From: Raillietiella orientalis | Lineage: Eukaryota | Direction: 5' to 3' | DNA: 64,000 nt | Assembly (NCBI GenBank): GCA_036172245.1 | Contig: JAYWIR010000076.1 | Span: 186,001 to 250,000 of the forward strand | Part shown: positions 2,397-51,165 of the stretch, piece after piece | Position numbering within the stretch: position 1 is the first letter of the stretch | Layout: each line of letters starts with the position of its first letter | Notes under the pieces: model-generated | What the model was told of the DNA's origin: nothing | The model's input: only the letters and a program-made list of their open reading frames with translations | Database searches by the model: none | Made by a program: the position numbers and the translations under genes

Positions 2397-2441
2397 TAAT
2401 TGCCAGCAATTGATATGTTTCCCTGAGAAAGTAAAAGGAAT

Positions 2442-28300: not shown

Positions 28301-28539
28301 CACAGCAGACTGTGATCCCTTCCCGTGCCTTCCAGATCTTGATTTTATATATTTCTCTTTTCTGTTTTATTTTTTGTTATGTCGTTGGCCTCTCTGCTGT
28401 CGTGGTTAACCGTAACGGAATACGATCCGGTGACCCGGCTGGCTTAATTTTGTATACCAGTGCGTGGCCGGTCCACCTGGTCAGCACCAACGTTTGTGTT
28501 ATTCGAAAGAATAAACGCACCGGCGCAACCGGGTGAAAA

Positions 28540-29343
28540 ACGAGCTCTCGAACGGCCAAGGTTCGAAGATGCTGGCGGAGGTGCTCCGCAGCCACCGGAT
28601 TTCTCAACCAGTCGGCCGGCAACCTCCAGACGTGCGTCGGAGGGCCCTTGCCAGGCGGGAGTAATTCCAACTCCAGCCTGTGGTGGTCGGAAAGCTCTGA
28701 CGGCACGGGACCTATTCGACTTACCCGACAATGCAGGTGATCGTCGGGGAACACATGGTCCGGCAAAGCACGCATCACGAGATCGTCGGCTAGCAAATTC
28801 GACGCGTGCACGGACGTGCACACGTCGTTCATTATCCGTTTCTCCTGGCGACGGTGAGACTCCTCCGATAGCGCGTGGACGTTAAATTCCCCGGCTACGA
28901 CGTGAGTTACGTCGGTGCCGGAGTTGCTTAGCCAGCGGTCGCGCAGTCTCTCGAGAAACTCCTGTTTATCGGTGCGACGCGCGGAGCCGCTCGGCGCGTA
29001 CACGTTCGTGACGACAAGGTTGATCGATTCGTACCACTTGAGAACAAGTTTGCCCACACGACCTTCCTCGTCGAGACAAACGCTCCGCAGAGCTCCCGCC
29101 ACCCTACTCCGGACAAGGAATGCGACTCCGCAGGTATTCTGGGAGTTTGACCTCCAATGAAGCGTCCCGCCTGCGCGAACTTGCAGATCGGCCGCTTGCT
29201 GCTCGGAGAGTGAGAGAATCTTCTGCAGCAGGGCCAGATTGTAGTCGCGCAAGACGTTGGCAACCAATCCCTTCTTCTCTTTGTCCTGCAGCCCGTTGAC
29301 GTTCCAAGAGGCCACTCACGCGACGGGAAGCGAGACCGCGCAT
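28540..29343 (-). pseudogene. H ORF2 endonuclease domain
   Basis: ASWNVNGL, TNVYAPSG, AGEFNV, SDHH. Confidence 0.9.
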
Positions 29344-29348
29344 TGCTG

Positions 29349-30710
29349 CTACGGACATGGGAGTGCGTTCCTCGCCCCGTCCGGCGAGGCATCAGCCGGG
29401 AGCAGGTCGGATGAGGTCGCGCAAGCGCTTCCTGTCCCCGCCGCGCCGCTCGCGGCTGGCTCGATGGAGTCGAGGACCATTACCTCGGGCTCCGAGGAGT
29501 ATCGGGAACCGTTCCCGGCATCAGGCTCTTGCCTGGCAAGTTTTGGCTTGCGCGCAACAGTGGCCTTGGTCGGGGCTTGCCGAGCCTTAGCGCTGCCCTC
29601 CGACTCCACCTCGGGGTCCAAATTGCGCGCGCGCGGCGGGGGTTTCGCCTGTTTTTTTTTTTTGCTGGCAGATCGGAGCTGGTCCGGCACTCTTAGAGGG
29701 TGCCTTCGTCGCCGATCCCCCTTTCGGGTTCACGGCTTCGGCAGCTCCCCTCTCGCCGCGGGTTTTTGCGGCAACGCGCGCGGCGGCAGCAGAGGCTTTA
29801 TCTTGCGCCCTCCTTGGCGCGCGGGGCTGCCTCTTCACCCCGCCTACCTTTTTGATCGGGAAGTGGAAAGGATCGCGCGGTTTGCGCTATTTCTTCCTTC
29901 CCTCAACAAAGGTGCAGCCATCCTCGCCGCCTTCCGGTTTGCCTCGGTTGGGCGCGAGGGCTTCCAGGGTCCTTTGCATCCTTTCCAAGGCCTCGGATAC
30001 GGCGATGTAGGGCAGTGTCTCCTTCGCTAGGTCTGTTTTTTGCACCTCCTTGCCGGAATGTGCGGGCAGAGTGGCGGGATTCTCGGAGGTCGCGCGAGGC
30101 TTTTCAGCCTTTGCTGGCGTACGGCCCGCTGTGGCCGGCTTGCTTGTCGCGGACAAAGGGGCACGCGATTCGTTTTTCGCCGCTCCGGTGGACTTCCCGG
30201 GCGTGCTACCGCTATTTCTCTCCGGAGAGAGAGCGGACCGAATGGGTGGTTTTGCCACCTGCCCGATGTTATCGGCGGGCTGGGTCGCTCGGGGCTTTAC
30301 GGAAGCAGCTTGGAGAAGCTTCTTGTCCTTTCGCGCGGGTTTTTGTGGAGCATTGCTCCGAGACTCTCCTGAGCAAGCTGACTTTTCACTTCTCCGCCGC
30401 GAATTCTTGTTCGCGCCGGATTTCTTCCTCGACGACGGGGCGGATGGAGTCGACGCGGACGGCGATATTGCGGGGAGATTTCTCGCCCTTCTCTTTTGTT
30501 TTAGCTCGGCGCTCTCGTTAATCGAGTGGCCGAGCAGCTTACAGTATCGGCAACTGCGTGTTCGGCACTTCCGCGGACGGTGGCCCTCCTTCCCGCTGTC
30601 GCATCAAGCAGGGGTTTGCCCGGAAAACCGGAGATAGACGACGACGTCACCGAGGAGGATCTGCGAAGGCATGAGCCTCCGGTCGTATATGGTGACGCGC
30701 GCCGTGGCGA
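29349..30710 (-). pseudogene. H ORF1, 3' portion, disrupted
   Basis: ARVTIYDRRLMP...GQT, GKEGHRPRKC, CRYCKLLGHS, Lys/Ala-rich tail. Confidence 0.75.
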
Positions 30711-30989: not shown

Positions 30990-32100
30990 GATTCGAAATC
31001 GTATTTGATATTCCTAGGAATTTATTTTTAACAAACAAAAGAACAAGGAATTTCCTTGTTGCTAGCCCGGAAGCTCACCATCCTAAGGCAGCTTGCTAGG
31101 AGCCGGTGCGGAACCGGCGAAGTCCATCCCACGCGCGTGGGTCGGGAAAGAAAAAACAACAGAAACAAAAAGTACAAACCTGGGTGGGCACAAATGTGTT
31201 AGGGATGGGAGGTCAGGGAAGTAATCACTGTGCGCAAGGAATTCTCTTGTAGATCCTCTTGAGGATACTCACAAGCTGAGTCCTATCTGCGTTCAAATGG
31301 CGCCAGTTGCACACTTCGCCCGAAAGTGCGAATCCAATGTAAGACGTTGCCGGTTGTTTAACGTCTTCTTCTGGTAGCGTTCCAAGCCGCCACGATCCCC
31401 CGAATGCAGCAGAGGATTGCTACACAGTTGGGCAAGGACAAGGCTCCGCGACAGAAGAGGCGCCTGAAAACGTCTTTAAGGCAGCATCCGAGCAAGTCCA
31501 AAATCGCCGCAAGACGATCCCAGGAAGTTCGGAGGGCACTCCACAAACTCAGAAGGTGGGGGAATGTCTCTTTCTTCCTGCACCAGTCGCACTGGGGATT
31601 CACAGCCCCCGTGTGGTATGATGCAGGCTTGCTTTAAAGGGTAAACTTCAATGTACAACAAGCAACGCCACCTCCTGCCATTTCAGGGGAAGGATTAACT
31701 GTTCCTGGACTCTGGGTCTACTTCATCTCCTCCGGAGATAGTCCGAGTAGCTCGCCCCAGCGCCTAATTCCGTTTGGCGGGACAATCGGCATCGCAGCGT
31801 CCGCTAGCCGCCGAGATGTCCACGCATTAATCGTTTGTGTCCTGCCTTCTTTGGTGCAGGACACGGTTCATTTCCCCTGCTCGCTACTGCCCCTGGCGTT
31901 TAGAAGGAAGGGCAGCACTGGGGCAAGGGGGGTTATCAGGGCCCACTTGAGCTTATCGTGGGACTGCACGATATCCTGCAGCTTCCATCGAGCGTGCCTT
32001 TGCAGTCAAGTGTTCGCAGCTTCCGCTAGCTGGGGAGATGTTCGCGCCTTGATTGATCGGTTCCTGACTTTAACGACGCAAGACGCTATTGATTTTCCTA
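30990..32100 (-). mobile_element. Decayed 3' portion of a second J element (J2): ORF2 C-terminus and 3'UTR
   Basis: NPQCDWCRKKETFPHLL...CCIRGIVAAW; AATAAA at 31026-31021. Confidence 0.7.
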
Positions 32101-33099
32101 GCTTGACGCTCATGGAACTTTTTCCTGAGGGCATGCATTTTTCCTCGATGCGTCAGATGTCTCCGAGGAGGAAGTCGTCGCTTCTGGATCTCTGTTCGTG
32201 CCCACCGAATTCAAATGGAAGTCCGTAGCCCTGCCAAGATCAAGTCGCATTTTGCGGAACGTGTGATGGCTTTGTTACAGGGTCCTTACTATTGAGGGCA
32301 CTGTCCTTACCTCCTTCTCCAAAGAGGTAGCAGAAGCATATCAACATCCCTCGTTGCTGTCGAGAGGCTTGTCAATACCGTTCTCCATATCTGTTATCAG
32401 GACACTTTCTTCAATAAAATTTGGTAATAAAGTCTATGAGTTTTCTAAAGCGAAACACGTGATTGCGCCTGCCTTGTAGCACTTGTCTTTACAGGGCTGC
32501 CGCATGGGATGAAAAGCCACAAAAAGACAAACAGGTGGGAGCAAAGGTCAATGTTCTCCGGGGAGGGAGAGAAGGGACAGCGGAACTCCGCGAGTAATCC
32601 TCTGCATCCCGTTTGAAATGCAAACGAGTAGAGATCTCAAAGTTTAAACCTGGAGCCCTCGGGAGGCATCCATCATGAAGATGACTGCCCGGTGTATGCC
32701 ATTCCGGCTATTGATGCCTCTACGCGATGCAGTCCACCTATCCGGGATTCTGTATGTCTGCAACAGAGAACTGCTGCACACATAGCTGGTGGCAAGGAGC
32801 CCCACATTAGTAGAGCATAGAAAATGCCCTGTAGCTCGTCAAACGGAATGCTAAAACTCGACGAAATTCAATTCCACATTGGATAGAAGGCGATACATTC
32901 GTTTAGCAGAGAAGGAAAGTTTTCCCTTACCCCTCAACCTAAACAATTGAAATGCAAACAACCTAATGTCCAGAGGGGAGAACGTGCTCTGCAAAGAAGT
33001 CCCCAATGCAACACTAGTAATGCATTTTTCTGATAATCCAGGGAGAAGGTGTCGTTGTACAACGCCTCCAGCATCCTCTGGATCACTCTACTTTCTCGG

Positions 33100-33560
33100 G
33101 AGAAATGCTTAGCAGCACACCCCAGCGCACCAGTCCTTTAGCTGGTATCCTGAGAGTATGCCCAACTACACCAGCGGTGTCGTCTTCTACCAACGATCTG
33201 CTGCTGCTTCACCCTATGTTCATCTCGGCAATGGCGCTTTTGAAAATTTCTTCGAGCTGCTACTCCGGAGGACAAGAATGGAGATAAACAGAACTAGTCA
33301 TTCATTTTACGTGCTCAGGACTGTAGGACTGTTTCCGATTAAAAATCTCCGCGATCCTGTTCTTCAAGTACCACGGTGTGCCGATGGAAAATCACTCAAC
33401 AGAGGAGGCGTGATCTAGCTGCCTCTAAAAGGTTGAAACGGCGATCCTTCCATTTCTAAATGTTCAACGATTTTTGTCGGAACATGCTGCGGTATAGATA
33501 ACTTTCGTGGCTCCGCTTTTGCATCTCTTGCTTTCTGTTTGTTTCTCAATCCAGAAAAGT
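33100..33560 (+). pseudogene. Highly decayed RT relic of the same L1 group
   Basis: CPTTPAVSSSTNDLLLLHPM and ENFFELLLRRTRMEINR match CPGTPAVSAYADDLLLLLPM and EDFFELL.RGTG.EVNR. Confidence 0.7.
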
Positions 33561-34936
33561 AAGAAAGAAAAGTAGAACTTCGAAGTGATCGATTTCTGGA
33601 ACAAAAAGAGTTAAGAAGCCCAATTCGAGGACATGGACTCACCGCAAAGGATGACATCCACGAACTTCCTATGTGGAATTAGCACAGCTTTAGCTCCAAA
33701 TAACGATTGCTGCTTTTGCTACAAAGTTTTCGAGCACAAGTGCTGCGTCCAAGCACGGCTCCACTTCCAGTTAGCTAGCGGAGACGCGGGCATTGCATTT
33801 TTAATCGCACTGCGTCGCCATCACATCGTCTACTGTAGATTGCAGCTTCCGAGGGCGAGAAACGTAAAAAAAAAAATTTTGAGATAAATCCACTACTATT
33901 CTAATAGCGATTGAGCCTAGATGGACGAGACCATTTGCTAGTGGGTCAGAAGCCATGCGAAAAACTTGGAACTGGTGCAACGGTTTTCGATCATGAGACA
34001 CAGCCGTTGCACGCTTTGGGAGTTCCTCAAACATCCCAGTGAAAGGGCGTGAGCAGTAAGAACATTTTTCGTAGTAGCTCTGTCATTACTCAAAGAATGC
34101 CTCAGCAGTAGCATAGCGGAGAAATGAGGAGTGAAGGTCATCACTGCCCACAGGCAGAAAGGACCAAGCGTGTGAAACCGGAGCAGCTCAATGACGCTAA
34201 AAGAACTCCCTGTGGAGAAGAAACCTGTTAAAACAATAAAAAAGACTAACAAAATCAGCCAGCAATTTTTTAATAATAGAGTTCTTCGGTAAAAGATGGA
34301 TTCACCGTGGCTGCTGTTCGGAGCGGTTCTTAAAACTAAAAGGGAGATTTCCTGTACCAATGGAGCAAACATCCGCACTACAACCAACACTCACAAAAGA
34401 AGCCCTCAAATAAGTGATGGGAAGGAAATGGCTCATGAAGGATGCTGATTGCTTTGAAAGACGTAAAACCACCAGGTCATCTTCAAGTAGATAATTTCGA
34501 AAAGTTGCGACAACGACTTCTTCCTTCAAGAGGAGAAACATATTCTACAACTCCTTTCATGAGTTCAATACCAAAGAAGTGAAGCAACATGGAGGTCAGT
34601 TCTTAAGTAAAACCAACGGTGCAGCTTTTTCGCAAACTTTCTGCGGAACCAAATTAACAGCAACAAAGCCAAATGTCGGCATAACAAAATAAAAAAAAGA
34701 ATGAGACAAGCAAAAATAAGAGCGAAGAGTCTTTTCTATGGCTAAAAGAAAAACAAATAAAAATGAATCATAACCTAGGAAACCAATTCAAAATACCTAA
34801 CTTTAGTTCTCCGTTTCATTCACATTACTCAGCTTCATCTTATTGACAATTTAAAATCAACCCCTCCAAAAATCTAAACAACTAAGTATGACATAAAGGC
34901 AACCATAAGAATTCTGAAATTGTGGGTTCAGCCTCC

Positions 34937-35323
34937 ATGGACGCAAATACTTTCGATTTGGATTATCATCAACAGTGGCAGGTCGTAACAGGACACATGA
35001 TACTGTCAGACTGGGTGAACAGAACCGAATATGAAGCCGTATTCCGCCACTGGATCTTTCGGCATCTCATCTCAACATATATCCATTCTGACGAAATTGA
35101 AAGAATACCAAACATTTCTGACTATATGATAACAAAACTTCAAAGAGCTCGAATCTACACTTTGGGAGATCTGTACATGCAACTCAGAAATAATTCTTAT
35201 GTACCTCGCCTATTTCTAAGGACAATGACGACCCTCATACGAGATCACCGACCGCAGATCCTGGATGAACTGAGATATCTCTTATTAGTCCTGTACACCT
35301 GGATTTTATTTAGAAACCAGTAA
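34937..35323 (+). CDS. 128-aa intronless ORF, divergent BAF-like / helix-hairpin-helix candidate
   Basis: Clean ATG-to-TAA ORF in AT-rich DNA. IERIPNISDYMITKL...Q...LF...LYTW follows the spacing of BAF VGSLAGIGEVLGKKL...Q...LF...LREW (BAF sequence recalled; aligned by eye). Confidence 0.45.
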   Translation: MDANTFDLDYHQQWQVVTGHMILSDWVNRTEYEAVFRHWIFRHLISTYIHSDEIERIPNISDYMITKLQRARIYTLGDLYMQLRNNSYVPRLFLRTMTTLIRDHRPQILDELRYLLLVLYTWILFRNQ

Positions 35324-35403
35324 GAGGGAAAAACTGCAAATAAAAGGAAAAACAAGAATTTTCAAAGGGTAAATCTACAATGCACAAAACTAAACCTAGT
35401 AAA

Positions 35404-35595
35404 GTTAGGTTAAGATAGGATAAGGTAGGTTAAGTTAGGTAATGTTCGGTCAGGTAAGGTTAGGTTAGGGTGGCTTAAAGTAGGTTTTTAGGTTAGGTTC
35501 GGTTAACATGGATGAAGTTCGGTAGGTTAGGGTGGGTTAAGTTTGGTAAGGTTAGGTTGGGGTAGGCAAGGATAAGTTCGGTTCGGTTCGGTTCA
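35404..35595 (+). repeat. Degenerate (TTAGG)n-like pentamer tract
   Basis: GTTAG/GTAAG/GTTCG/GATAG 5-bp periodicity over ~190 bp. Confidence 0.8.
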
Positions 35596-36185
35596 GCACC
35601 GTGCCTGGCCTTTTCGGAACGGGCCGATTGCCAGCATCACCTTTTCGAGACGGACAGACCAGACTTTCCCGGCCCAGAAGTCCCCCAACGGAGAGCCAAG
35701 GTGCTTAAAGTACCCGCTTGTGGAGATCCCTAAGCTGATCCAGTCCGAACGTGCTGCCCGCGACAGGTACATAAATAATGCTCACGACTTCATATTGTTG
35801 ACCTCCAGACATGTTCCGCGGCGTAGCAACTAGAAGAAATCCTCGACCGCCGATGCCGGGGTGGACCCGGGAAGCAGGAGCAGAAGATCGTCGGCATAGG
35901 CCGACACGGCAGGCGTGCCGGGACACGAGCTCGGCAGGGTTGCCAAAGTCTCCCTGTATGCTCTCAGCACCAACTCAAAGTAGATGGTGAAGAGCAAGGG
36001 GCTGAGGCTCTCACCCTGGAGGATTTTGCGTCTAGCCGGCACCCCGTACACGTGCCGGTCACTGAAAGTGATGTTGAGCAGAGCGAAGCGCGAGCCGAAG
36101 CGCAGGTAGGCCATGAAGACGGCTGGAAATCCCACGCGTTCCAGGAGACCCAAGAAAAGATCCTGGTCGACGCTTTACGCCCGTT
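35596..36185 (-). mobile_element. RT fragment, probably the downstream part of the B-like element B'
   Basis: LQGESLSPLLFTIYFELVLRAY...SAYADDLLL. Confidence 0.8.
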
Positions 36186-37667
36186 AGGATGGACGTGTTT
36201 CCTCAGTAGTTCTCGTGCCAGGAATCGTCCCTAGATGTAGGCTTCGTGTGTGTCGGTGGTCGATCAGGAAGCGATGCTTGACACGACCACCAGTACGTGT
36301 CAGGAAGAGGCAGGAAAGTCGCCTCCTGAGAAGATAAAGTGCCAAGGGTCGGCGGGAACGTCGCCTGCCGAGAAGATGGAGTTCCAGGTGGTGGACGCAA
36401 ATTCGCCACCAGAAAAGATGGAGTGCCAGAAAGCGGAGGCAACGTCGCCCTCAGTTTCGACGGAGGTGAGGGCATCCGCCCCCACACAATCGGTCCACGC
36501 TGCAGCGTGGGCGTGGAGCGTCGTTGTGGCAACGCCATCGCCTGCACCCGCGGCGAAATTGTCAGCCTACTTGGAGGAGGGGTATAACCCCTTATTGCTC
36601 TACAAGGTAGGCAATCCTTATAGTTCAGAGAGTGCGCGGGCCTTTTCGAAGGGGATGCGCGCTCTCGATGTTAAGGAAGAAAAATTCATCCGCAGTGGGG
36701 GTCAGTACGTGGAGTTCATCTGCAAACAAGAAGAGATGGTTCAACGACTGATCAAAACCTCCGTGGTGATGGAAACGCGCAGGCTCCTCCCCATTACGCG
36801 GACCGCAGAATGGTGGTCCACCTATTAGGTGTAACCGCGCGGATGCGGAAAGAGCTAGTTCGCGCGGTGTTAGAACAATTTGCAACCGTCCATGCACAGT
36901 GGTCAAAGCCCAGTCCTTTTGAGGACTACACGAGGCTGAAACACGGTTTCACGGCCGAACCCATAACCCTCCGGGAGAGCTGTTCTCTTCTCCACAAACT
37001 GCTGGTCGGAGGCGAAACCGTCGACATCTGGTATGTGGAGAAGCCCAAATACTGCGGCTTCTGCAATACGTCGGGCCACCTCGAAAAAAGGTGCCCCAAC
37101 GTGCAGTGCCAGGTGTGTGGGAAGATGGGCCACACGCAAGAGGTGTGCCCAACAGCAGCTCTGCTGCTGGTTTCCAAGAGAATCCTTAAGAAACGCGCCC
37201 GGCTGCTGAAGAGAAGGCTGGCGGCCAAAGCAGCCTTGAAGGCTGTGCCACTCGCGCCAAAGGCCCAGGCCGCAAACGAGACTCCGGGTGCGGCACGGCA
37301 TGAACAACGCCGAAAAAGTCGAGGGAAACGGCCAGGAACCTGGGTGGCAGGTGGCAACAGCCAAAAAATCAAAGAAGGCGAGAGGAATAGAGAAGAAAAT
37401 CGCCTACCATCTGAAGCAGAAAGAGCAGGGTAGCGCAATAATTGAAGAGTGCATCGTAGTAGTGGAACGCGTTGCCTATGTTGACGAACGCTGCCAGAAA
37501 AAACTCGCCGCTACCGACTAACGACCCTCTGTTGACTCTGTCAACAGCGAGGGGAGCGAGCCGGCAATGTAGTCCGTCATCGAGCTGACCATCGATGATA
37601 GAGCCTTCGTGCAAGCAGCGGAGGAGCTGGCTGCCTCGTTGAAGCCAGTGCCCTCCAAGGCAAGTTG
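36186..37667 (+). mobile_element. Family G 5' end and ORF1 (G1), disrupted
   Basis: 5' GGACGTGTTT at 36191; GYNPLLLYKVGN; CGFCNTSGHLEKRC; CQVCGKMGHTQEVC. Confidence 0.85.
36298..36450 (+). repeat. 42-bp (14-aa) coding tandem repeat, ~3.6 copies, in G1 ORF1
   Basis: CQEEAGKSPPEKIK / CQGSAGTSPAEKME / FQVVDANSPPEKME / CQKAEATSP. Confidence 0.8.
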
Positions 37668-38585
37668 GAGGAAGTGTTTTTCCTTCACTCCCCAAAGAGT
37701 AGTAGGGAAGCGTTTTTCATGTGTGTAGTGTTTTGTGTACATCGTCGGTGTCCAATGGCCACGACGCCAGAGTGCACCGTGATGAAGGTAGGAGTGCAGG
37801 AGGCTAGTTCGCCCCCACAGCCTGCTGGAGCAGGGACAGCCGCTCCGGAATCATCCCCGGCCACGCCGAGGACATGGAGCGCCATGGTGACTGCGCCCAG
37901 CGGGAAGCCATGGCGGAAAAGGCCGCATACAAGGCCTCCGGATACAAGCCTTCGCTTGTGTACCAGGTAGGCAACTTGTTCGACGGCCGGACAGCGCGCG
38001 CCTTAAGTAAAGCGCTGAAAGACGCGAACGTAATGGAGAAGGATCTGGACGGCCTCTCCGTCCTCAGCGGCGGGCAGCGGGTCGAGGTGGTCTGCAAAGA
38101 CGTCACCTTGGCTCACCGCCTAATCCATGCGTATCTGAACGTAGACGGCCGCAAGATCCTGCTAGTGTCAATGGACCGCTCCGTGGTGGTCCACATGACC
38201 GGCATCACCAGCCGCAAGACGCGGTCAGCGCTTGGTGAGGAACTACGTAAGTTCGGTGTAGTGCACGCACTGTGGCCGAAACCCACCATTTTCAAAGGAT
38301 TCGATAGCCTTTTTGGTGGTCAGGCTGCAGCACGGGTCACCGTAAAGGAGAATTGTGGGCTTCCCCACAAACTACAGGTGGCACAAGAAAACGTCGAACT
38401 GCGGTATGTAGGGAAGCTCCGGTATTGCGGGCATTGTGATACCGTGGGACACCTACGTAAAAGGTGTCTTGACATACAATGCCATTTGTGCGGGGAGCGG
38501 GGCCACGTTCGGCGCGTGTGCCCCAAACGCCCCACCCCGATTCCCCCTGCCGCGAAAAAAGCTCAGGGGAAACGCGCACCAAAGG
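37668..38585 (+). mobile_element. Family E 5' end and ORF1 (E2)
   Basis: 5'UTR matches 54748 onward; GYKPSLVYQVGNLFDG; CGHCDTVGHLRKRC; CHLCGERGHVRRVC. Confidence 0.85.
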
Positions 38586-41500
38586 TCTCTAGAACTCGAC
38601 TGGCGCGGATGCCATGCCAACGAAGGGATTAAAAGCCCTTCCGAAGGCAGCGTCCATGACGAGCGTGTCGGAGCCATCCAAAGTGCTCCCGTCCAAAGAC
38701 GCGGATGGCTTCTAAGATGGCAATGGAGCACAATCTCCATTTGCGGCGCCACGCGGAGTGAGGAACCGTAATGAAGTAAACAAGACTTCAGCAAAGGTCC
38801 CTCGTGCAACTGCGCGTAAGCGCGCTGAAAACGCGCGCGCCGGGAAAGCAGCCGTCACCAAAAGCGATGCTCTGGTGACGGAAAACGAAAACAGGACAGC
38901 TGTCAATCCAGCAGAACCTGTCACTGCTTCGCGGAAGGCCGAAACCCGATCGAACAAGCGCCGGTCGGACTCCGAAATGGATGCCGTTCCGATCACCAAG
39001 ACGAGGACAACTCGTTCAAAAGCGTGTGCGCGCCGATCAAAAGTAGGCAGCCAGGCAACGCTCGCCGCGAAGCAACGCGAAGTCTCCACGAAACCCGACG
39101 GGGTTCAGCCTGGCGTGGAGGCATTACATGCATGCAGCACGGCAGAGGACGGTGGCGACCGTCCCCTTCAGCCAGTCGTGCTGCTCGCCGTCCGCTCGCC
39201 GGATAAAGCGAGCAAAAAGCCGTCGCCTTCCCAGCAGTGATGCGGGGAATCGCGTCTTCTCGTCGTCTGTCCGTAACGTGTTAAAACGTTAACGGGCTAC
39301 AGAACGACGAGAAGAGGCGATTAGTAGCCAACGCCCTGCGCCCCTTCGACCTCGCGCTCCTGCAGGAGATTCACGTAATCTCCGACGAGCCGACAGCCGA
39401 AATCGAGAAGCGAGCAGACGGAACGCTACATTGGCGATGCGACGGCGCACACACGTGCAACGTTGCGTTCCTCGTAAGAGGAAAAATGGCGGAAGCGGTG
39501 CGTAGTGTTCGTTTCGACGACGACGGACGGGTAGGCCAGCTTGTCATCCAGTGGTCCGAGTCTATCGATCTCGTTGTTGCGAACGTCTACACGCCGAGTG
39601 GCTCTCGCTACATCGAAGCAAGAGTAGCTTTTTTTGGTGAGGTGCAGAGCCACTGGCTCAACAACTCCGGCTTCCAAGTGGCGCACCCCGTCGCTGGGGA
39701 CTTCAACGTCCGCCTGCTCTCCGACGATTGGAGCCGCCCGAGGGAGCGCGCGCTGCCCATCAAGATGTGCGCGTGCGAGCACGCCGCCAACTCAATGGTC
39801 AGCAATCCTGGAATGGAAAGATCGCTCGATCACGTTTTCCTCGATGAAAACCTGCATTCGCGTGTGGTTAGGAGAGGAAGATTGTTGACTAGGCTTTCTG
39901 ACCACCACAGGTTGGAGTTTGAGATCCTTCCGCAAGGCAGGGATCCGCTTGCTAAACTAGAGGATGCAGGCGGATTGGCTTAGCCAACCGGAGGCTGCGG
40001 AGCATCTACGTGGATACCTCCGAGGCTTTGCCATTCAAGAATTAGCGGACTAGGACGATCTCAAAAGATCTGTCCGCGAGTTCTGCTGCCAATTCCCCCT
40101 GCACCGGCTTCCACGCGGATTCGGAGAGAGCGTGGCCAACAGTAGAGAATTTCTGCAGGCCCGCACGTTTTCGAGACGCGCGGATGTCGGGCGTCTCGCA
40201 GAGTACAAGGCAAGGGCCGAGCGCCAGGTCTGGCAGTCCGGAGCAGCATGCCTGTTGGACGACAAGGGCCAGGAATGTTCGGAACCAGCCGTAATACGCC
40301 GCATTGTGAGACGCTACTACTCCTCTCTGTACGCGGAGTCCCCGACGGAGGATATTCTCTTTAAGATATTCCTGTCTCAAGATGCTCGTGTTGTCGGCGA
40401 GGAGAAACGCGAACGTCTCAACGAGCCCATCACGGCGGATGAATTTTCGTCCGCCATCGCTGGGCTGAAGAGACGAAAGGCGCCAGGCGAGGATGGGCTC
40501 CCTGCAGAGTTTTATCAGTGCTTTGCAGTGGAGCTCATTCCCTTGTTGCTGAAACTCGCGACGCTGATGAGTGAATCCGGGAATGTCCCGGATTCCTTCC
40601 GCTCAGCGAAGGTGCGTCTCCTGCCGAAAGGCGGAGACTTGCGCCAACTTAACAACTGGCTCCGATCACCTTGGTGAACACGGACGTCAAGTTGTTTTCC
40701 AAGCTGTGGGTAGCGTGGTTAGGAAGTATCGCGGAATCTGTGGTGAGCCCGGAACAATCCTACGCGGTTCCGGGAAGATCCATTTAGGCGAACATCCTTT
40801 TCGCGCGTACATGGATGCAGCTGCAGGAAGTTGTAAAGCAGCAAAGCCAGGCTGTTGCAAAAGTCACTGCCGCAGGCAAGAAGAACAGGCGCCGACGGCA
40901 GGAGGGAACGCCAGGTGCCTTGTCTGTCGCGGTCGATCTGCAGAAGGCGTTCGACTGCGTAAACCAGAAGCTGCTTTTGGAGCATATGGAACGCCTTGGA
41001 TTTTGGCGCAACTCCTGCTGTATTTGCGCGCGTGCTGGCGCCACACGCTAACCTGCATCACTTTCAGCGGCTGCCGTGTGTACGGTATTTCCGTGCGTAG
41101 GGGCATCCGACAGGGCGACAGGTTAAGCCCGTCGCTCTTCAGCATCTTCTTTGAGTTGGTGCTTAGAGCATACAGGCTGACGCTGTCTTACTTGCCGAGC
41201 TCCTGCCCGGGAACGCCTGCCGTGGCCGCCTACGCTGATGACCTGCTTCTTCCGCTCCCCATGTCCACCCCGGCGTCCAGTGTCGAGGATTTCTTCGACC
41301 TGATTCGTCGGGGAGCGAGCGTGAGTGTGAACAGAGAGAAGAGCGTGGTCGTTCGTGTGGGTACGTCGTGGGAGGGACAGTCCAACTGGATCCGCCTGGG
41401 GATCCCCACTGGCGGGTACTTTAAGTACCTTGGAGTTCCGTTGGGCGCTTTCGGCGCAGCCAAAGCGTGGGCGGACTGTCTTCAGAAAGCAGAGTTGGCC

Positions 41501-43142
41501 ATCAGCCCGTTCTTTAACGGCAAGTTAACCTTGGAGTAACGGGCGACTATTTGGAACACCTTTGTGGCCCCCCTCCTCCGTCCCCTGTTTTTTAATTCGG
41601 ACCCCCCCTATGAGGCGAAACAGCGGGCTAAGCGCCTGCTTAGGAACGCTCTCTGGGGTCCGGCGAGATCCAGGATCCACCTTAAAGATTTGTTAGCTCC
41701 GCGTCGGGATGCTGGTTTGGGTATCCTGACAATGGAGCGAATCGGACTGCAGGTGCAGTTCCGACTGCTGGCACTGTGTGCCCAGCTATGGACATGCCCC
41801 CTGTGTGTGCCAGCGCGCATTCTCCTGCGGAGATGCGCCGGCAGCGGAGGATTTCTCTCGCTTTTGCCGGGCACTCAATACAGGAAGCGGGGTTTCGGGT
41901 TTCCATTGCGGCAGTTGACCGCACTTCTGGAAGCACACTCGTGGATCTCCTGCCGCCCAATGAACTTTGAAGCTTGCGGCAGGAGTCTGTTGAATCCTGG
42001 GCAGCGTTCAATGGGCTGCGTCCTGGAGATCTTCGCTCACTGCGCCATCTTCTTCCGCGATCTTTGGAAGATGTACTGCAGGACGAGGTGAAGTTTTCTA
42101 CCCTGGCTGCCACGCCTCTTGCCGCAGCGCTGTCTGCCTTCAGTGCAAGGACCCACAGTTGCTAACCGGCGAGGTAAGAGGTTTTCTGCACGATAGCGGG
42201 AAAAACCAAACTCCTTGGCGCCTGGAAGACGAGTGAGTTGTCGGACGCCGCCACTCCTCGTGTTACTGCAAAGGGATTCCTCCGGTGGGCAGAAGAGCTT
42301 GCTGTCACCCCCTAAGAACTTATAGTTCCTTCACAGTGTGTTGACAGTTTGCTGCTCTCCCTTGCTTGTAAGAAAGCCGTGCTGCTTTTCGTCCACTGAG
42401 GTTTTCAGTGTAACGAGCGTTGACATCGAGACTCTGGGAGACTTGCATATGCCAACTGCGTTTGGTGCGGGTCGACGGAGTCGATCCCGTACCTACTTCT
42501 GGACTGCGTTGTCCTACAAGGACTGTAGCGTTGGCTGAGAACAGCACTAATGCATCCCGTGGACACCGCAAGAGACTTGCTGCGACGATTCTCCACGCCG
42601 AGCGGGCTGTCACTAAGCGCAAGGATTGCAACCATCGGTTGCATACGCGCGATAGTTTCCTACCGCCAGGCGTTAGTAATCAACGGACAGCACCAAGAGG
42701 TAATCAGCAAAGCATCCTTCTACATGGGAGCATCCGCTAGATGGCCTCATTTGACAGAGGAGACAAAAAGGAATCTCGCCGCAATACACCGCCGGTTTAC
42801 ACACCCTCAGCAGCGGCCAACCCGGTGATCATTGCCCTACCCTCCATAAACTAATTTTGTATTTTCTTTTTACACCCGCGTCCCCATAGGCTCCGGAACA
42901 TTTTAGGTGCTCATCGTTTAAATCCCCGTGAGTACGGAGTCTAACCGAAAACCCGTTACCCTTCCCTCCAGTTTTTGATTTTTGTTTGTTTCCCCTCATT
43001 CCTCCCACGCTGCGAGCGGTTTGTTTACCAAGCCTGCGTGCCGGTAAGTTTTCCATGTTCCCTGTAGTTCTGTTCGTTATGTAAATTGTCCCTGACCAGT
43101 TGATTATTATTAATAAACGCCCCGGCGTGACCGGGTGATAAA
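38586..43142 (+). mobile_element. Element F1 (D-related): ORF1 tail plus complete but disrupted ORF2 (39240-42828) and 3' end
   Basis: The ORF1 tail GGDRPLQPVVLL matches D1; TGATG at 39238; GDFN, SDHH, YADD; 3' hairpin at 43112-43136. Left boundary approximate. Confidence 0.85.
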
Positions 43143-43320
43143 CTTCAATCTCCGCCTACTGGCAGGTGCGCCAGAAACACAATAGAACGCGATGAACGAG
43201 TTGTGCGCCGCCATGCGTGCGCCAAACTTGTTCGCGGGTAAGAGAGGATTGGTTCGAGCATCGATCGCGTCTTCTTCGACGCTGACATGTGTTCACATGT
43301 CGGCAAACGGCGGAGGGTTG
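43143..43320 (+). pseudogene. Host endonuclease fragment resuming at (D)FN after F1
   Basis: FNLRLL...NELCAAMRAPNLFAG...IDRVFFD. Confidence 0.75.
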
Positions 43321-43344
43321 CGTCGAGGTTGTGGGACCATTCTT

Positions 43345-46300
43345 GGTGCCTATGTAGAAAAGGGGTATAACCCATTGCTATTCTACAAGGTAGGAAATTT
43401 GTATTCTTCTGAGAGTGCGCGCGCATTTTCGAAGGGGATGCGCGCTCCCGATGTTAAAGAGGAGGAGCTCTGCGCTATGACCATTCGTAGCGGGGGGCAG
43501 TACGTAGAGGTGATCTGCAAACATGCAGATCTGGCCCAACGTCTGCTTAAAACCCCCGTGGTAATGGAGACACGCTGGCTCCTTCCCGTTACGGCGGACC
43601 ACAGTATGGTAGTCCACCTTTTAGGAGTTACCGCGCGAATGCGGAAAGAACAGTTACGCGCCGCGTTGGGAAAAGAAGGCACGGTCCATGTAATATGGAC
43701 CAAGCCTAGTCCTTTCGAGGAGTATACCACAGTTCAGTGCGGACTCACGGCTGCCCGTGTAACCGTTCGGGAGGGCTCTACCCTTCCCCACAAACTGGTG
43801 GTTGGCGGAGATAGCGTCGACCTCTGGTACGTGGGGAAGCCCAAATACTGTGGCTTCTGCAACACGTCAGGACACCTGAAAAGGAGGTGCCCCAGCGTAT
43901 AGTGCCTGGTATGCGGGACAATGGGTCACACGAGGGAAGTGTGTCCACAAACCGCTGTGCGCGTCGTTTCCGCGAGGAACCTAAAAAAACGCGCGCGGCT
44001 GCTACAGAAAAGGCTGGCAACGAAGGCTGCCGCTGAAGCTGTGCCACCCACTCCCGTGGTCCAGGCGTCAGCCGACACCCCGGCAACGAATGCCGAAAAG
44101 ATCAACAAAAGCGATCAGGTGTCGTAATGGCAAGAAGCCAAAGCAAAAAAGGAAAAAAAGTCGAAGAAAGAAAGACGAATTAAAAAAAAGCTCGCCTATT
44201 AAAATAAGAAACAGCAGCTTAGCGAGAATTTAAAAGAATGCAGCGTCGTCGTGGAACGCATTCCCGCCGAACGCCGCAAGCTAGAAATCGCTGCAACCGA
44301 CGAGCAACCCACTGTTGAAAATGTCAACAGCGTGAGGAGCGAACCGGCGGAAACGTCCGTCATCGAGACCGTGATCGATGACGCCGCCTTCGAGCGTGCG
44401 GCTGAGGAGCTGGCTGCATCGTTGCAGCCAGACCCCTCCAAGGCTGGCAAAAAGGCAGTGAGGCGTCCGGCCTCCACCGAGGAGTCGGTAACTTCCGACC
44501 CCGATGCGCAGGCCGGAAACCAAGTCTCCATCTCCGCGGCACCCCGCCGGAAGGCTGGAAGGAAGTCCAGCAAACCCCGGAAAGCCCCTCTCCAGGTCGG
44601 AGGCGTGAAGATGACTTCCGACTGCGAGGGTGCCATGAGCGTGGGAGAATCCCTGGAATCGTCACCCGAGAGACCACCACGAACAGACACGGAGGAGATG
44701 GAGGGGGTTGAAGCCGGAAAGGTACCCAAGGTGCCTGAGGAGGCTGAAACCCTAATGGTCATTTCACCCGCCTCGGAAGAGGCGGGTTCCCCCACACCGT
44801 CATCTTGACGGCAGTAATGCTTGGAATCTCCTCCCGCCGTCGTCTGCGCATCGCTGTTTGGAACGTAAACGGGATGACAGACGCCGGCTGGAGACAAGAC
44901 ATGGCCGCCCTTCTTGAGTCCTACGACCTTGCGCTGCTGCAGGAGATCCACGTGATCTCTGCAAAACAAGCGCAGGAGATCGAACGCATCTACGGAGGGC
45001 GGCTGTGGTATCGGTGTGGAACATCGAGAAGTTGTGGTGTCGCCTACCTGCTTCGGCCCGCCGTCGAGACCGCCGCCCGTGGATTTCGGTTCGACGATCA
45101 CGGTCGTGTCGGCCAGCTGACTCTCAGCTGGTCCGACTCGATCGACCTGATCGTTACGAACGTTTACGCCTTGAGCGGAGCGGACCTCACGAACAGGAGG
45201 GCCAGGAAAGAATTTCTCCTCGCCCTTTATCGCGACTGGTTGACCAAGGCAGGCGTGCAGAATGCCCATCTGGTTGCAGGCGATTTTAACGTTCGTCTAA
45301 CACCGGATGGGCCGAATCACGAGCGTGACCTGGTCAACGAGGTGTGCGAGGAGGTGCACACTTGTAATTTGTTGGCCAGTGTACCAGGGATGGAGGACAA
45401 CATCGATCACGTGTTCCTTGACGAGCACCTGTGCACTCGTGTGGGCAGGCGCTGCAAGTTACCGTGCGAGTTGTCCGACCATCGACCAATCGTGATTGAA
45501 ATCCATCCGCGCGACAGGGGCCCCCCCTTGTCAGCGTGGCGTTTTCCAGGGGACTGGCTGAAGCTCCTGGACGCGACGGAACATCTCCGCACGTTTATAC
45601 GGAGCTTTAGGATGCAGACACTTCAGGATTGGGACCGCTTCAAACGGTCGGTCCAGGAGTTCTGCGACCAGTTCCCTCTGCACCGCCTACCTGCGGGATT
45701 TGGGGACGGAGTACGTAACGAACCAGCCTATCTGCAGGCTCGCCGTTACGCCAGGACCCCCGACATCCGCAGGCTGGCGGAATACAAAGCGGGAGCGGAG
45801 ACGCAAGCCTGGCAGTCAGGATCGGCCAGCTTGCTGGACGATCAGGGCCAGGAGCTTTCGGCACCCGCTCAGATCCGCGGTCTGCTGCGGCTTTTTTACT
45901 TCTCCCTGTACGCAAGAACGGCTCCCGAGCGGGATTTCTCACGAATCCTGCTTCTAAAAGGCGCTCCTGCGATCGGGGAAGAAAAGAGAAAGTACCTCGA
46001 CGAGACTTTCACGATGGGCGCGATCATCTCGGCCATTGGGAAGCTCAAGAGGCGAAAGGCACCAGGGGAGGACGGCCTGTCCGCGGAGTTTTATCAATCT
46101 TTCGCATCTGAGCTAACCCCCCTGGTACATCAACTCACCTTGCTGATACGCGAGACAGGTCACGTTCCCGCCTCGTTTCGTTCGGCAAAGGTACAGCTTC
46201 CTTCTAAGGGAGGAGATCTGAGGAGCATGAACAACTGTCGTCCCATCACAATAGTGAATGCGGATGCCAAGTTGATAGCTAAGGTTTCGGTTGAGCGCTT

Positions 46301-48622
46301 GGGACGGGTTGCAAACGCCTTCATCAGCCCGGAACAGACGTATGCTCTTCCGGGGCGAAGCATGGAGGCGAACCTGTTCCACGCTTCCACCTGGCTAGAG
46401 CTCCAACACGAAAGGGGCTTGATGCGCATTGGGAATTCCGGTAAGATCGTCAGTCATGCGACGGATGGTCGGATGAAGGAGGGAGCACTTGCGGTCGCTG
46501 TCGACTTGCGTAAAGCATTCGAAAGCGTCGACCAGAATCTCCTGCTGGAGCTTTTGGAACGCTTGGGCTTCCCGGCTTCATTATTGGACTATCTGCGCTC
46601 TAGCTGGCGCGATTCGCAAATCAATGTAACTTTCAGCGGGCATACTGTTCACGGCGTGCCGGTGCGACGTGGCATCCGGCAAGGAGACAGCCTGAGCCCC
46701 TTCCTCTTCAGTACGTACTTTGAGTTGGTACTGAGAGCGTACAGGGAGACTCTGGCGCACCTGCCGCATGAATGCGTCGGAACGCCTGTGGTTTCAGCAT
46801 ATGCGGACGACCTCCTGCTACTGCTCCCGATGTCCGCCCTGGCTTCGGCGGTCGAGAAGTTCTTCGACCTGCTGAATCGAGGAACCGGGCTTACGGTGAA
46901 CTGCGCGAAGTCGACTGTGATGCCAGCTGGAGCGACGTGGACAGGGCAGCAGGACTGGGTCCGTCTGGGGATCCCCACGGTGAGGTGCATCAAGTACATC
47001 GGAGTGCCGTTGTGGGACTACTCTCCTGCCGAAGCGTAGTCCAGCTGCCTCCAACAAGTCGAGACGGCGATCAGCTTGTTCCTGGAAGGCAAGTTTCACT
47101 TGCCGGTACGGGCCGCGGTTTGGAACGCCTTCGCGGCCATCATCCGCCGCCCCTTGCTTTTTGTTTGCCCCGCCCCCGTGGAATGAAATAAGCGAACGAA
47201 GGACCTCTTCCGCATAGCTCTTTGGGGCAAGGGGAGGGCCCGAATCCCTTTGAAGGACTTCTGCTCTCCGCGTCGGGAAGGCGTTCTCAGCATCCTGAAG
47301 CTGGAGCGCGTGGAAATCCAACTGCGATGGCGGACCCTCGTTATCGCAGCGAAGATGTGGAGCACCGCTTGGTGCATTCCGGCCCGCCTCCTGGCCAGGC
47401 GTGTGTCCCGCTGCGAAGGACTCGCATCGTTTCTTCTGTGCTTTGGCCGGATGATTCGAAGATGCGGTCTACTGCTCGGCCGAATGGCAACCCTGGCAAA
47501 GGAGAACTACTGGATGGTTTGTGGCCCTGCTAACTCCTCCGCTTGGCTGGAAGAGACTGCTGGCACCTAGGCCAAGCAGAACCAGAAGGGCGAAGACCGG
47601 ATGAAGTGCCTGCGAGTCGGCTTTTACGCCCGCCGAACTCTCCGTGAAATTCTTGAATTTCCACCGAGTTGCACGTGGGCGGAAGGCACACTCCTTGTTA
47701 CGGCGATGCCCTTCCTCCAAAGGGCGCTTCACGAAAGCCGGAAGCCAAGGTGGCAAGTCTGCTGCCGTATCGCAGTCAGAGAGAAGATGATGAGCGGCTG
47801 GACCATGGGAGAGTTGACAGATGCAACGACCCCTAGTCTCCATCCGCGTGGATTAAGAAGATGGGGCGAGCTGCTCGGCATTCGATTGGATGACCTGAAG
47901 TGGCCCCCGGTTCTACTTGGATCCAGGATTCTTCATCTGAAGTGGCAAGAATCGGCGCTTCTGTGGCTGCATTGGGGTCTACCCTTCAACGCGCGCCGCT
48001 TCCACTGGACGCGGGGAAGATTAAATCCTGCGTGTGCCAGGTGTGGGGAGCGGTAGTCGCTCCTCCACCTCTTAGTTGCATGCCCTGCCGTCCAGATTCT
48101 TTGGAATCGTCTTAAAACGGCCCTACGGATACGGGATGGTGGCAATGTTGGATGTGTCTTCAGTCTTGTCTTCGTGCGGGACGCCCTCAGTCCAGCCGCA
48201 GCCCTGGCAGCACTTTGCTGCATTCGTTGTATCGTGGCGGCCTGGAGTGATGCCGAAGATGAAGTCTGCATCGTGAGGGACGTCATCGAGTATGCTTTAC
48301 GCTTCCTGCAGAGAGCTACCCGATGGCCCCATCTAGGAAAACTGAAAATGGAACTAGAAGGCATCCTGCAAAGGATGGGCGCTCCCAGCGGTTTTAAGTG
48401 ATTCCTTCCCGGCCCTCCAAACTTTTTTTTGTGGTTTGTTTTTTTTTTTTATTTTACTTTTGTTTTCTCCCCCATCCCCCTCCACTGCCTAGTAGAGCCA
48501 CACCGGGCTGCGTCCCGGTGTCCCGGCAGTTCCGGTATTGCGTGGCCGTCAGTGGGGCCTTGTACCACGTTCTGTATTGACCGTCGAAATGTTTTTAATA
48601 AACGTCCCGGAGTATCCGGGTG
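43345..48622 (+). mobile_element. Element G2: 5'-truncated ORF1, ORF2 at 44817-48399 (first ~740 codons open), 3' hairpin
   Basis: VWNVNGM, LQEIH, AGDFNV, SDHR, GIRQGDSLSP, YADD, CARCGE; AATAAACGTCCCGGAGTATCCGGG at 48597-48620. Confidence 0.9.
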
Positions 48623-51165
48623 GCATTGCCGAAACCTGGAGGAAGTTGATGAAGGGGAAACTGGTCACAGAACTCTCGGACTGAGCGTTTTATTTTGTCT
48701 AAGTCAGCGAGAGTCTGCAGTTCACAACTACGCAGGAATGCGCGCAGATTTTCGCGCGTTACTGCGAGTCGCAACCAGTCCTCAGGCAGACGCCACGCTT
48801 CGGAGGGTGGACCTCTGTAGCGCGGATGAATGTTGATCACTAGCCGAGGATGATCGGACAGCTCCGACGCAATTGCCCCTCGAGTCCCCACCCGCGTACA
48901 CAAGTGGTTATCGAAGAACACGTGGTCGATTCTGCTTCTCACCCCGGCTTCATCGGCCAACAAGTTGCGTGTGTGCATAGCCGCACACAACTCGTTGACC
49001 AATTGTGCTCGTATGTCGGGCGCTTCCGACAACAGGCGGACGTTGAAGTCTCCCGCTATCGAATGCGACCGCCGCACGCCTGCTTCGGCCAGCCAGTCTC
49101 TCCGCAGGGCTTCGAAGAACGCAGTGCGTTCTGCGCGCCTGTGGCTGGTGCAGGGCGCGTACAGGTTCGTGACTACGAGGTCGATCGATTCGGACCACTT
49201 AAGGACAAGTTGTCCAAGTCGACCTTCCTCGTCGAACTGTGCACTGCGCACCGCATTGGCGACGGCTGGCTTCAGCAGGAAGGCCACTACGCGGGAGTGG
49301 TCTCCTCCACCACGCCAAAGTAGTCTTCCCTTGTGAGCCTCTCGATTTCCTGGACGTCCTCTGCTCTGAGGGCATGCACCTCTTGGAGAAGTGCCAGGTC
49401 CAAAGGTCGCAGGGTGTGGGCCACGATACGCCTCTTGCTTTCGCTACGCAGCCCGTTGACATTCCAACAGGCTATACGCAGCTGCCGGCAAGAGGCGATC
49501 CCACGCATCATACTAGTGACGGTGGTGGCGTGTGTATTGCCGCCTCCTGTTCGGGAGGCGGCTGGTCGCTGTCCATCTGCGGTGGTGGCGTTTCGGCAAC
49601 GACCGGAACATCTGCAGCCGGACTGCAGTCTATAGGGAGGACCGATCGGATGCTGTCGATAGAGGGATCCCGCGACCTCGCGGACATCGCCTCCTCGCTA
49701 TCCGAGCGCATCTCCTCCACCTCAGCCTGAGGGGGAGCGACGCGCATAGGGTTGCGCGACTTCCGGCCCGCCTTCCTCTTCGGAAGGACGACGGTGGGAG
49801 GGTTTCCGGCTTCCTCCTCGGACCCGGAAGTTTCCGGGCCCTTAACTTCCGCCGGACATCTGACGGCCTTCTTTGCAGCCTTAGGCGGCTGCATTAAGGT
49901 GGCCGCGAGTTCCTCCGCCGCCTTCGCGAAGTTTTTCTCGTCGCTGCTGCTCGCGTGTTTGTCGCAGGATTCCTGCGGCGGTTCCGCGGCGTTCGCGACG
50001 GTTGCGGGAGTCGCGTTCGCCGATCGACGCTCGATCGACGGAACGCGCTCGATTGTAACGCGGCATTCCTTTATGGATCCGCGCGGCGAAATTTTTGGTT
50101 TGCCGACCGCGGGCTTTTTCGGAACGCTCGCGTTCTGATTTTTTGAGTTTTTTGTGGGGATTTTTTTGTTTTGTTTTCAATTTGTTTGGGTTTTTTGCCG
50201 GAGACGATTTTCCAGCCTTCCTCGTCGGCATTTGGATCAGTAGTCTTTTTTTGAGGCTCCTGCTTCTTGTGCACGACTTCTTCTAAAGTTAGCTTTCCAT
50301 CGCTCTTTGCTTTAAATTCTGCCTTCTTCCCCTCGTTTGTCGAAGGGGCTGAAGGCGTTGTCGCGGCGTTTTTCGGGCACACAGCACTAGTATGGCCCTT
50401 CGCGCCGCAGGTTGGGCATGTGGCATCCGGGCATCTCTTTTTAAGATGCCCGAATGTGTTGCACAGTCCACATTATTGTTCCTTCCCCACGTACCAGAGG
50501 TCGACAAGCTCGTCGTTGACTTCAAGCTTGTGGGGAAGTTCTTTGTTTTCGCGAAGAGTTACGCGCGCGGCCACTCGCCCACTGAATGCGCCTCGATAAG
50601 TAAAGGCGTTGGGCTTTGACCACATCGCGTATATCTCCGCGAATTTGTTGATTTCAGTGCGGATGGCTTCATCGGTCATCCGCACCGTTGTACCCGTGAG
50701 GTGGATCACCATTGATTGATCCACCGTGTGTGGGAAAAGATTCCGCCATTCGAACGGAACGGGCGTGCAGAGCAGTTTGTGTGTGAGCGCCGCATCTTTG
50801 CAGATCAGCTCCGCGAACTGCCCGCCGCTCCGAATCGAGAAGCAAAGAATCTTCTCGTCAGAGATTCCCATCCTACGGATGGCGTTTCCAAATTTCCGCG
50901 TTGTAAGCGGTGAATAAAGATTTCCTACCTTGTAAAGGAGGACTGGGTTGTAGCCCTCCTTTATGTAGGCCTGCATTTCGGTGACCACTTCCGGCGGAGC
51001 CGCCGCGGCCACCTTGTTCCACGCCCTCGCCGGGGTGGCGGGGACTGATTTTCTGGTGGGGCATGACCCCACCTCCATAGGTTAGGGAGACGTGGACCTC
51101 ACGTCTCCCGTCGGAGGAACTGCGGCGTCTTCAGGCATTTCTGCCTTCCAACGGCCGCACTTCCG
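48623..51165 (-). mobile_element. B-like element B': ORF1 and endonuclease, truncated at LPPGFG by G2
   Basis: ORF1 GYNPVLLYKVGNLYSPL resembles 12722 onward; TGATG at 49510-49506; CWNVNGL, AGDFNV, SDHP. Confidence 0.85.

Follow-up and report, generated by a model that had tools for sequence, protein, structure and literature searches.

Do retrotransposons that nest inside one another break their hosts at positions set by chance, or can one lineage favour a particular word in the genes of its relatives? This question is raised by a 64-kb stretch of Raillietiella orientalis DNA (GCA_036172245.1, contig JAYWIR010000076.1, positions 186,001 to 250,000 of the forward strand; the whole stretch is called the window, and positions are counted from its first letter), in which two elements, F1 and F2, each abut the endonuclease gene of a related element at the codons for a single motif, GDFN. 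The window is a nest of related retrotransposons that lack long terminal repeats (non-LTR), with a GC content of ~55–59%, plus two AT-richer islands. Pfam searches placed Exo_endo_phos (apurinic/apyrimidinic endonuclease, APE) and RVT_1 domains across it on both strands, with PF03372 and PF00078 together in a single 763-aa frame (44748-47036) that joins the endonuclease (EN) to the reverse transcriptase (RT), and the same domains in A, B, H and F1; by this domain content the elements are APE-type non-LTR retrotransposons (long interspersed nuclear elements, LINEs). Both GDFN junctions were confirmed. We consider their most likely cause, which we put a little short of an even chance, to be a local, sequence-dependent target preference acting through target-primed reverse transcription (TPRT) with a nick preference particular to the lineage; the preference for the GDFN site is plausible, not proven.

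At the first junction F1 ends at 43142, as …CCGGGTGATAAA, just behind the 3' terminal motif AACGCCCCGGCGTGACCGGGTGA (43116-43138), which has four matches in the window at ≤3 mismatches against none expected (0/100 shuffles) and also ends B (19523-19501, minus strand), X3 (56793-56771, minus strand) and E1 (28514-28536). From 43143 onwards (CTTCAATC… / CTTCAATCTCCGCC…) there follows an APE endonuclease, of which the C-terminal half is present: CTTCAATCTCC… aligns, from its first base and from the FN codons, with 25759-25855 in the endonuclease of E1 (72% identity across 97 nt), and its translation, with two frameshifts and one stop, runs (D)FNLRLL…NELCAAMRAPNLFAG…IDRVFFDADMCSHVGKRRRVASRLWDH. 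Searching with the endonucleases of E1 and I by tblastn gave a match at 43141-43343, from D/FN to SDH, with E values of 3e-10 and 1e-10 for the 64-kb window. The right end of this fragment, E2, lies at the SDH codons (43336-43345), where the 5'-truncated element G joins it, and E2 thus comprises exactly GD/FN to SDH/. Because the 3' flank of G is a different element (I, on the minus strand), the join between E2 and G looks like a rearrangement.

At the second junction GGAGATTTCAATC (63395-63407, the sole exact match in the window) closes an endonuclease stretch, 63086-63407, that aligns from 'AQEME' to GDFN, and GA followed by the 5'-terminal motif GTGCGGACGTGTTT occupies 63408-63423. The host here is more than a lone fragment: the stretch belongs to element D, which has a 5' terminus of its own (54749), an ORF1 (first open reading frame) and an endonuclease N-terminus reaching 56767, and which has been broken twice, by X3 after 56767 and by F2 at GDFN. 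An earlier sequence-only reading of this DNA, which called D by the name E3, had described both joins, and both were found where it placed them: endonuclease sequence resumes from FN behind the 3' hairpin of F1 (43142/43143; tblastn E ~1e-10, 72% nucleotide identity to E1), and the endonuclease of D stops at GGAGATTTCAATC, where a canonical 5' end begins. The ORF1 of F2 (63483-64000) has three in-frame TAA/TAG stops within 170 codons.

The D and the N of GDFN have a catalytic role in APE endonucleases. The motif of the window elements aligns with the GDFN of human L1 (phmmer, 'lvagdfnvrl' in the 44748 frame against 'LIMGDFNTPL') and is conserved in an alignment of the window endonucleases, in keeping with its earlier description as a conserved APE motif. 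Assuming a 7–8 bp (Y)TTCAATC duplication, both breaks share one nucleotide position within the GDFN codons (GA^Y TTC AAT C), in the sense orientation. TTCAATC stands at 43144-43150 and at 63401-63407, and, counting both strands, the window has only six copies of it. The seven endonucleases that are uninterrupted (those of G, A, B, F1, H, I and E1) all keep a G(D/Y/E)FN motif at the homologous position, spelled in each case TTYAAC followed by G or C and never TTCAATC. This difference in spelling between intact copies and junctions fits a sequence-dependent site, and the 7–8 bp overlap is compatible with a target-site duplication (TSD), as had been proposed, since it falls within the range of 5, 6 and 12 bp carried by the complete nested insertions of the window. 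The same 7/7 endonucleases contradict the accompanying idea that GDFN is a target which 'the host cannot easily escape': synonymous spelling varies freely at GDFN, and escape is therefore easy.

A parallel case lies upstream in the same gene. B and X3 are two independent insertions at one site, the codons of 'A.EIE', and they represent 2/2 B-lineage copies in the window. In their shared parts they are 92.8% (449/484), 94.8% (1285/1355) and 96.3% (289/300) identical, whereas the endonuclease flanks of the one and the other agree at 69.4% (145/209, left) and 64.8% (219/338, right), and their hosts differ in ORF1 type, G-like in E1 and F1-like in D. Both are antisense with the same geometry: the 3' junction reads …GGAGAT(TT)/CTCAC… (19492-19500; 56762-56770), and the 5' junctions lie 12 nt from the same GGAGAT in the 'A.EIE' codons (25439-25456; 63086-63103). 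The chance of reaching the same nucleotide in the same orientation was ~3e-4. GGAGAT is present on both sides of B in E1, and the B-like elements' own genes spell the motif GAAATCGA, without GGAGAT. The reuse of a site inside sibling endonuclease genes by B and X3 raises the prior for the GDFN case. Together with the GDFN pair there are four bona fide insertion junctions inside endonuclease DNA, all at just two sites and all in hosts of the G/E1/I/D type.

A GDFN preference would involve two separate sense nested insertions, with the same kind of element presumably behind both. The inserted elements come from a group that in the window takes in A, B, X3 and F2 as well as the 3' part of F1, recognisable by the common 5' terminus GAGYGGACGTGTTT and by the 3' stem-loop followed by N-AAA, and the hosts, E2 and D, belong to the G/E1/I/D endonuclease group. 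We infer that the APE nuclease of the element would nick the antisense strand of the host after GATTGAAR, that the exposed 3' OH would prime cDNA synthesis from the short run of A residues that follows the 3' stem-loop, and that the second strand would be cut 7–8 bp away, after …TTCAATC, leaving the TTCAATC duplication. The missing upstream flank of F1 would then call for one extra event: ~3 kb may have been deleted internally (from host ORF1b through GDFN, together with the 5' part of the insert), or the target may have suffered a deletion at integration. That both junctions lie at true element termini and not at arbitrary breakpoints counts in favour of this explanation.

Several observations weigh against a shared GDFN preference. 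No copy in the window has endonuclease on both sides of an insert: there are one 3' and one 5' half-junction in different hosts, so that the earlier claim of a sense insertion in GDFN seen twice stands for the nucleotide position and the orientation and not for a single copy with both flanks. What the 5' end of F1 (~37664) abuts is not endonuclease but G-type ORF1, at the point that corresponds to G position 44444; for this reason no TSD is shown for F1. F2 has no B-like segment in the window that could be compared with that of F1, its ORF2 and 3' end lying past position 64000, and the N-terminus of its ORF1 has no significant match to the ORF1 of F1. B uses a different site in the opposite orientation, A sits in the RT region of H despite its B-like endonuclease, and no common motif was found at the remaining sites (A in H at ACGCATCAGCGA, E1 in H at CGAGC, J-c in H, H in G3, G in I). 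No outside copies with flanks were found in metagenome, viral and prokaryote collections or in protein databases. Finally, the post hoc chance simulation gave P = 0.05–0.09 with all 8x8 junctions counted.

Part of the difficulty is F1 itself, which is a composite. From 37664 to ~38600 it is D-like (72% nucleotide identity to the 5' region of D, 67–70% amino-acid identity in ORF1a), and from ~38960 it is B-like (53% in the ORF1 C-terminus, 60% in EN, 63–76% in RT); the ~400 nt between these parts (within 37664-39200) gave no match. One reading, which fits, is that F1 belongs to a mosaic family and sits in a G2/E2 host, with ~0.8 kb of target lost. At least as likely, F1 began as a D-family host in which a B-like element landed at GDFN, and a later deletion of ~3 kb that spanned the left junction fused this host to an insert now 5'-truncated, so that both hosts would be of the D family; insertion followed by deletion is also how the sequence-only reading had accounted for the E2–F1 chimera, and the switch from D-like to B-like sequence makes that account reasonable. 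Under either reading the left junction of the insertion is gone. The sequence-only reading had asked for confirmation that F1 and F2 are one family, a link that did not emerge here: the 593 nt of F2 in the window resemble B and A (50% and 44% amino-acid identity in the ORF1 N-terminus), and if F1 is a mosaic family, their union is not supported by the sequences.

Chance is the alternative to which we give most weight, although we regard it as unlikely: in a transposon graveyard where nearly all DNA is retrotransposon, two unrelated insertions may have broken the same endonuclease codons. The simulation, which was computed after the fact, drew one 3' and one 5' junction, TSD-compatible (0–15 nt) and in one orientation, in a 5.7-kb host, and gave P = 0.0014 for the named pair and P = 0.009–0.017 for 3x4 unpaired junctions. 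For the same-nucleotide test at GDFN, with its one 3' (43142/43143) and one 5' (63407/63408) junction (n = 2 half-junctions), chance thus lies at 0.01–0.09, and the coincidence is suggestive, not decisive. In favour of chance, a TSD-compatible pair arises in 5–9% of simulations over all 8x8 junctions, the window is a hierarchical nest (H in four pieces by A, J-c and E1; E1 by B; D by X3 and F2), several of its junctions are plain rearrangements, for example those of E2 with G and of G with I, and F1 and F2 are not demonstrably one family. Chance accounts less well for agreement to the nucleotide in the same orientation, for an identical TTCAATC that is missing from 7/7 intact copies, and for a relative that clearly reuses a site in the same gene, with four bona fide endonuclease junctions at two sites.

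Other routes need no second integration at GDFN. A D-family element carrying a sense F insert might have been copied as a unit, by read-through retrotransposition or duplication, so that the D/F2 and F1/E2 joins would go back to one insertion, as its left and its right junction in copies that have since diverged. F1 does start D-like (72% to the D 5' region) and continue B-like, both hosts may be of the D family, the sense orientation is what co-transcription would require, and F2, of which there is only the 5' part, and the B-like stretch of F1, which is a 3' part only, do not overlap, stand about equally far from B (50–53% amino-acid identity in ORF1) and could be identical by descent. Such an event is nevertheless improbable: the 5' flanks differ, RT of c' before D and ORF1 of G2 before the D-like F1, so that no segmental duplication is involved, a composite RNA of ~11 kb would be required, and at 28% divergence a 7/7 match of TTCAATC would be expected only ~10% of the time. 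Non-LTR reverse transcriptases make end-to-end template jumps, and both junctions have the geometry of such jumps, sense to sense with complete RNA ends (the 3' end of F1, the 5' end of F2); chimeric cDNAs might thus have formed by template switching between element RNAs, with no integration at GDFN. This we hold to be more improbable still, because the host ends overlap by 7–8 nt (…TTCAATC/ and /CTTCAATC…), which fits staggered DNA nicks and not a single RNA break, because nothing in it would make two different host RNAs break at GDFN, and because the complete nested insertions here have TSDs, as in ordinary integration. An assembly error or a later rearrangement behind one or both junctions is the least probable of all: repeats abound here, among them an inverted duplication of 4.3 kb whose arms are 88% identical, yet both junctions lie exactly at conserved element termini, unlike a misjoin or a random deletion.

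Beyond a local preference at GDFN, one may envisage a guild of LINE lineages homing into short words in the endonuclease genes of rival sibling LINEs, a possibility that we regard as doubtful. The B lineage would enter antisense at GGAGAT ('A.EIE') and the F lineages in sense at GAYTTCAATC (GDFN), while their own genes spell GAAATCGA and TTYAACGTC. Were it true, the guild would amount to retrotransposon hyperparasitism, in which each hit disables the nuclease of a competitor, takes a landing place where it does no harm and adds to the nested islands. In any case, since A, E1, J-c, H and G insert elsewhere, target specificity in the window is at most lineage-limited.

If confirmed, a LINE lineage that aims at the sequence encoding another LINE's endonuclease would add a new kind to the targets known for such elements, which are genes for rRNA and snRNA, telomeric repeats, microsatellites and a single family of DNA transposons; it would also give a concrete case of competition of transposon against transposon and help to explain how nested islands grow without harm to host genes. 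Small APE nucleases with defined sites of 6–16 bp would further serve as natural models of change in APE specificity. If the GDFN preference is not confirmed, the locus shows an ordinary coincidence of nested insertions. A narrow full-text literature search, in which subscription papers were not covered, found no report of a LINE targeting the endonuclease ORF of another LINE.

The closest behavioural relative may be Tx1L, an APE-type non-LTR element of Xenopus that targets the DNA transposon Tx1D and that Cosby et al. (2019, PMC6719617) give as an example of a transposable element preferring other transposable elements. Akin to Tx1L, a LINE with an APE nuclease would here have another transposon as its preferred target; the difference is that sibling LINEs would supply this target, in the protein-coding region of their endonuclease, and not a DNA transposon, and that the evidence for the GDFN site consists of two half-junctions. 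More broadly, the R1 and Tx1 clades are APE-encoding, target-specific groups with transposons among the known targets, according to Kojima and Jurka (2015, PMC4640811). The window elements resemble LINEs of these clades (R1, TRAS, SART, Keno) in their APE nuclease, their precise 3' junctions and, in the B lineage, the reuse of one nucleotide in a multicopy target; the targets of those LINEs are mostly rRNA and snRNA genes, microsatellites and telomeric repeats, and the resemblance is one of behaviour, as the match to L1 does not settle the clade. Human L1 ORF2p was the best match among solved structures, with the same APE and RT architecture (RT E 3e-41; a weak endonuclease match, GDFN on GDFN), and differs in that L1 ends in poly(A) and the window elements in a conserved short stem-loop and AAA. 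L1 nicks loosely at TTTT/A. In plants, nested LTR retrotransposons occupy non-random positions and target particular regions of other elements (Jedlicka et al., 2019, PMC6911290), and non-random nesting is also known for double insertions of transposable elements (McGurk and Barbash, 2018, PMC5932611); these systems are alike in non-random nesting and differ in that they concern mainly LTR elements or members of one family, and in that integrase takes the place of TPRT.

The outside searches behind the missing flanked copies were as follows. The 3' stem-loop pattern matched 35 metagenome loci, none of which (0/35) was homologous to the window by tblastn or blastn, so that all are chance matches, and it had no match in viral contigs; ORF2 against prokaryote genome contigs gave 14 pattern matches, none related. 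A protein search with the ORF2 of G returned five proteins at E ≤ 1e-10, the best with 69% identity on a 2.9-kb contig, whereas the junction-spanning frames 63066-63731 and 19301-19537 had no protein match in the database search, and an Atlas look-up gave generic EN/RT clusters only; relatives are thus almost absent from the protein databases. Among sequencing runs, one contained 15% of the sampled words.

The order of elements was established with a hierarchical map, built from self-comparison and from tblastn with the ORFs of two reference copies (Table 1). The common 5' terminus GAGYGGACGTGTTT has six matches in the window against 0.99 expected (0/100 shuffles reach six), and the common 3' terminus has the form AATAAACG-YCCGG-N5-CCGGGTGA-N-AAA. 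In the 'hairpin' within it CCGG pairs with CCGG around a loop of 5 nt; this short stem has the same sequence pattern from lineage to lineage, but its folding energy was not clearly better than that of shuffled sequence (z −0.3 to −2.3, five folds), and no Rfam family was found in the window. The signature of TPRT, a TSD together with a defined 3' end, was found for A, E1 and B, and for neither F1 nor F2.

Table 1. Elements and element fragments of the window (EN, endonuclease; RT, reverse transcriptase; UTR, untranslated region; TSD, target-site duplication).
Feature	Position	Strand	Description
H	29315 down to 4041	minus	four pieces, split by plus-strand A, J-c and E1
A	6396-12355	plus	in H; 12-bp TSD ACGCATCAGCGA at 6375 and 12356
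J-c	12634-17353	plus	inserted in H
E1 (host)	17610-28540 (17610-19497 and 25439-28540)	plus	split by B; antisense in H; 5-bp TSD CGAGC at 17603-17607 and 28541-28545
B	19497-25438	minus	near-complete (5'UTR, ORF1 of 636 aa, EN 23456-22704, RT, 3' stem-loop); antisense in E1, at GGAGAT of 'A.EIE'
G2	36523-37663	plus	G-type ORF1 fragment flanking F1 on its 5' side; its end corresponds to G position 44444
F1	37664-43142	plus	canonical 5' end at ~37664; D-like to ~38600, B-like from ~38960 (ORF1 C-terminus, EN 39207-39947, RT, 3'UTR)
F1 3' terminus	43116-43142	plus	conserved stem-loop motif 43116-43138, TAAA tail 43139-43142
E2	43143-43340	plus	decayed endonuclease fragment, (D)FN to SDH; TTCAATC at 43144-43150
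G	43341-48625	plus	5'-truncated (ORF1 from ~aa 50; open EN+RT frame of 763 aa); 3' stem-loop 48597-48622
D, left part (E3 of the sequence-only reading)	54749-56767	plus	5' terminal motif, ORF1 (70% aa identity to ORF1a of F1), endonuclease N-terminus up to 'AQEI'; GGAGAT 56762-56767
X3	56768-63085	minus	B-lineage, antisense in D; middle replaced by other sequence; 5' motif 63085-63072
D, middle endonuclease piece	63086-63407	plus	12 nt of uncertain origin (63086-63097), then GGAGAT ('AQEME') to GGAGATTTCAATC (GDFN, 63395-63407)
F2	63408-64000	plus	full-length 5' end (GA+GTGCGGACGTGTTT), 5'UTR, ORF1 N-terminus; continues past the window

Around the 'A.EIE' site some details deserve mention. Between GGAGAT and the 5' motif lie 12 nt of uncertain origin at 25439-25450 and 63086-63097 (9/12 alike), which can form a small inverted repeat with the first element bases (GCAC…GTGC) and are not a copy of the left flank. 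An 18-bp TSD around B in E1 was considered and rejected, as only GGAGAT is common to both sides (9/18). A match at 30474-30486 that resembles the B junction is taken as chance; it lies inside an apparent minus-strand ORF1 and has no stem-loop. GGAGATT/AATCTCC was also tried as a mark of all F- and B-type 3' flanks: it stands beside B, X3 and F1, but has 25 copies in the window (3x expected), its offset differs by 5 nt and its orientation is the other one in the flank of F2, so that it is a lead at most. G is uninterrupted at 44815-44830 though it carries the B-lineage target word GCGCAGGAGATCGAA, and occupancy of the site is therefore incomplete.

Nested insertions in the window are mostly antisense (H in G3, A in H, J-c in H, E1 in H, B in E1, D in c', X3 in D, G in I, and probably, in X3, the distant element at 58100-60508); F1 and F2 alone are in sense to their hosts, and 8/10 antisense is not in itself significant. 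The element at 58100-60508, on the plus strand, is an EN/RT element of a distant clade (~27% amino-acid identity to the others) and stands in place of the ORF2 of X3. The 4.3-kb inverted duplication (13649-17957 / 55479-51167) holds parts of four elements, namely the 5' part of D, c, an H fragment and the 5' part of E1/I, and its identity stops ~250 bp inside E1/I. The AT-richer stretches are 1-3400 and 31900-35600 (39–47% GC), and a 460-aa open frame at 1014-2393 had no Pfam match. Most copies in the window are decayed; long open frames are kept by B and G.

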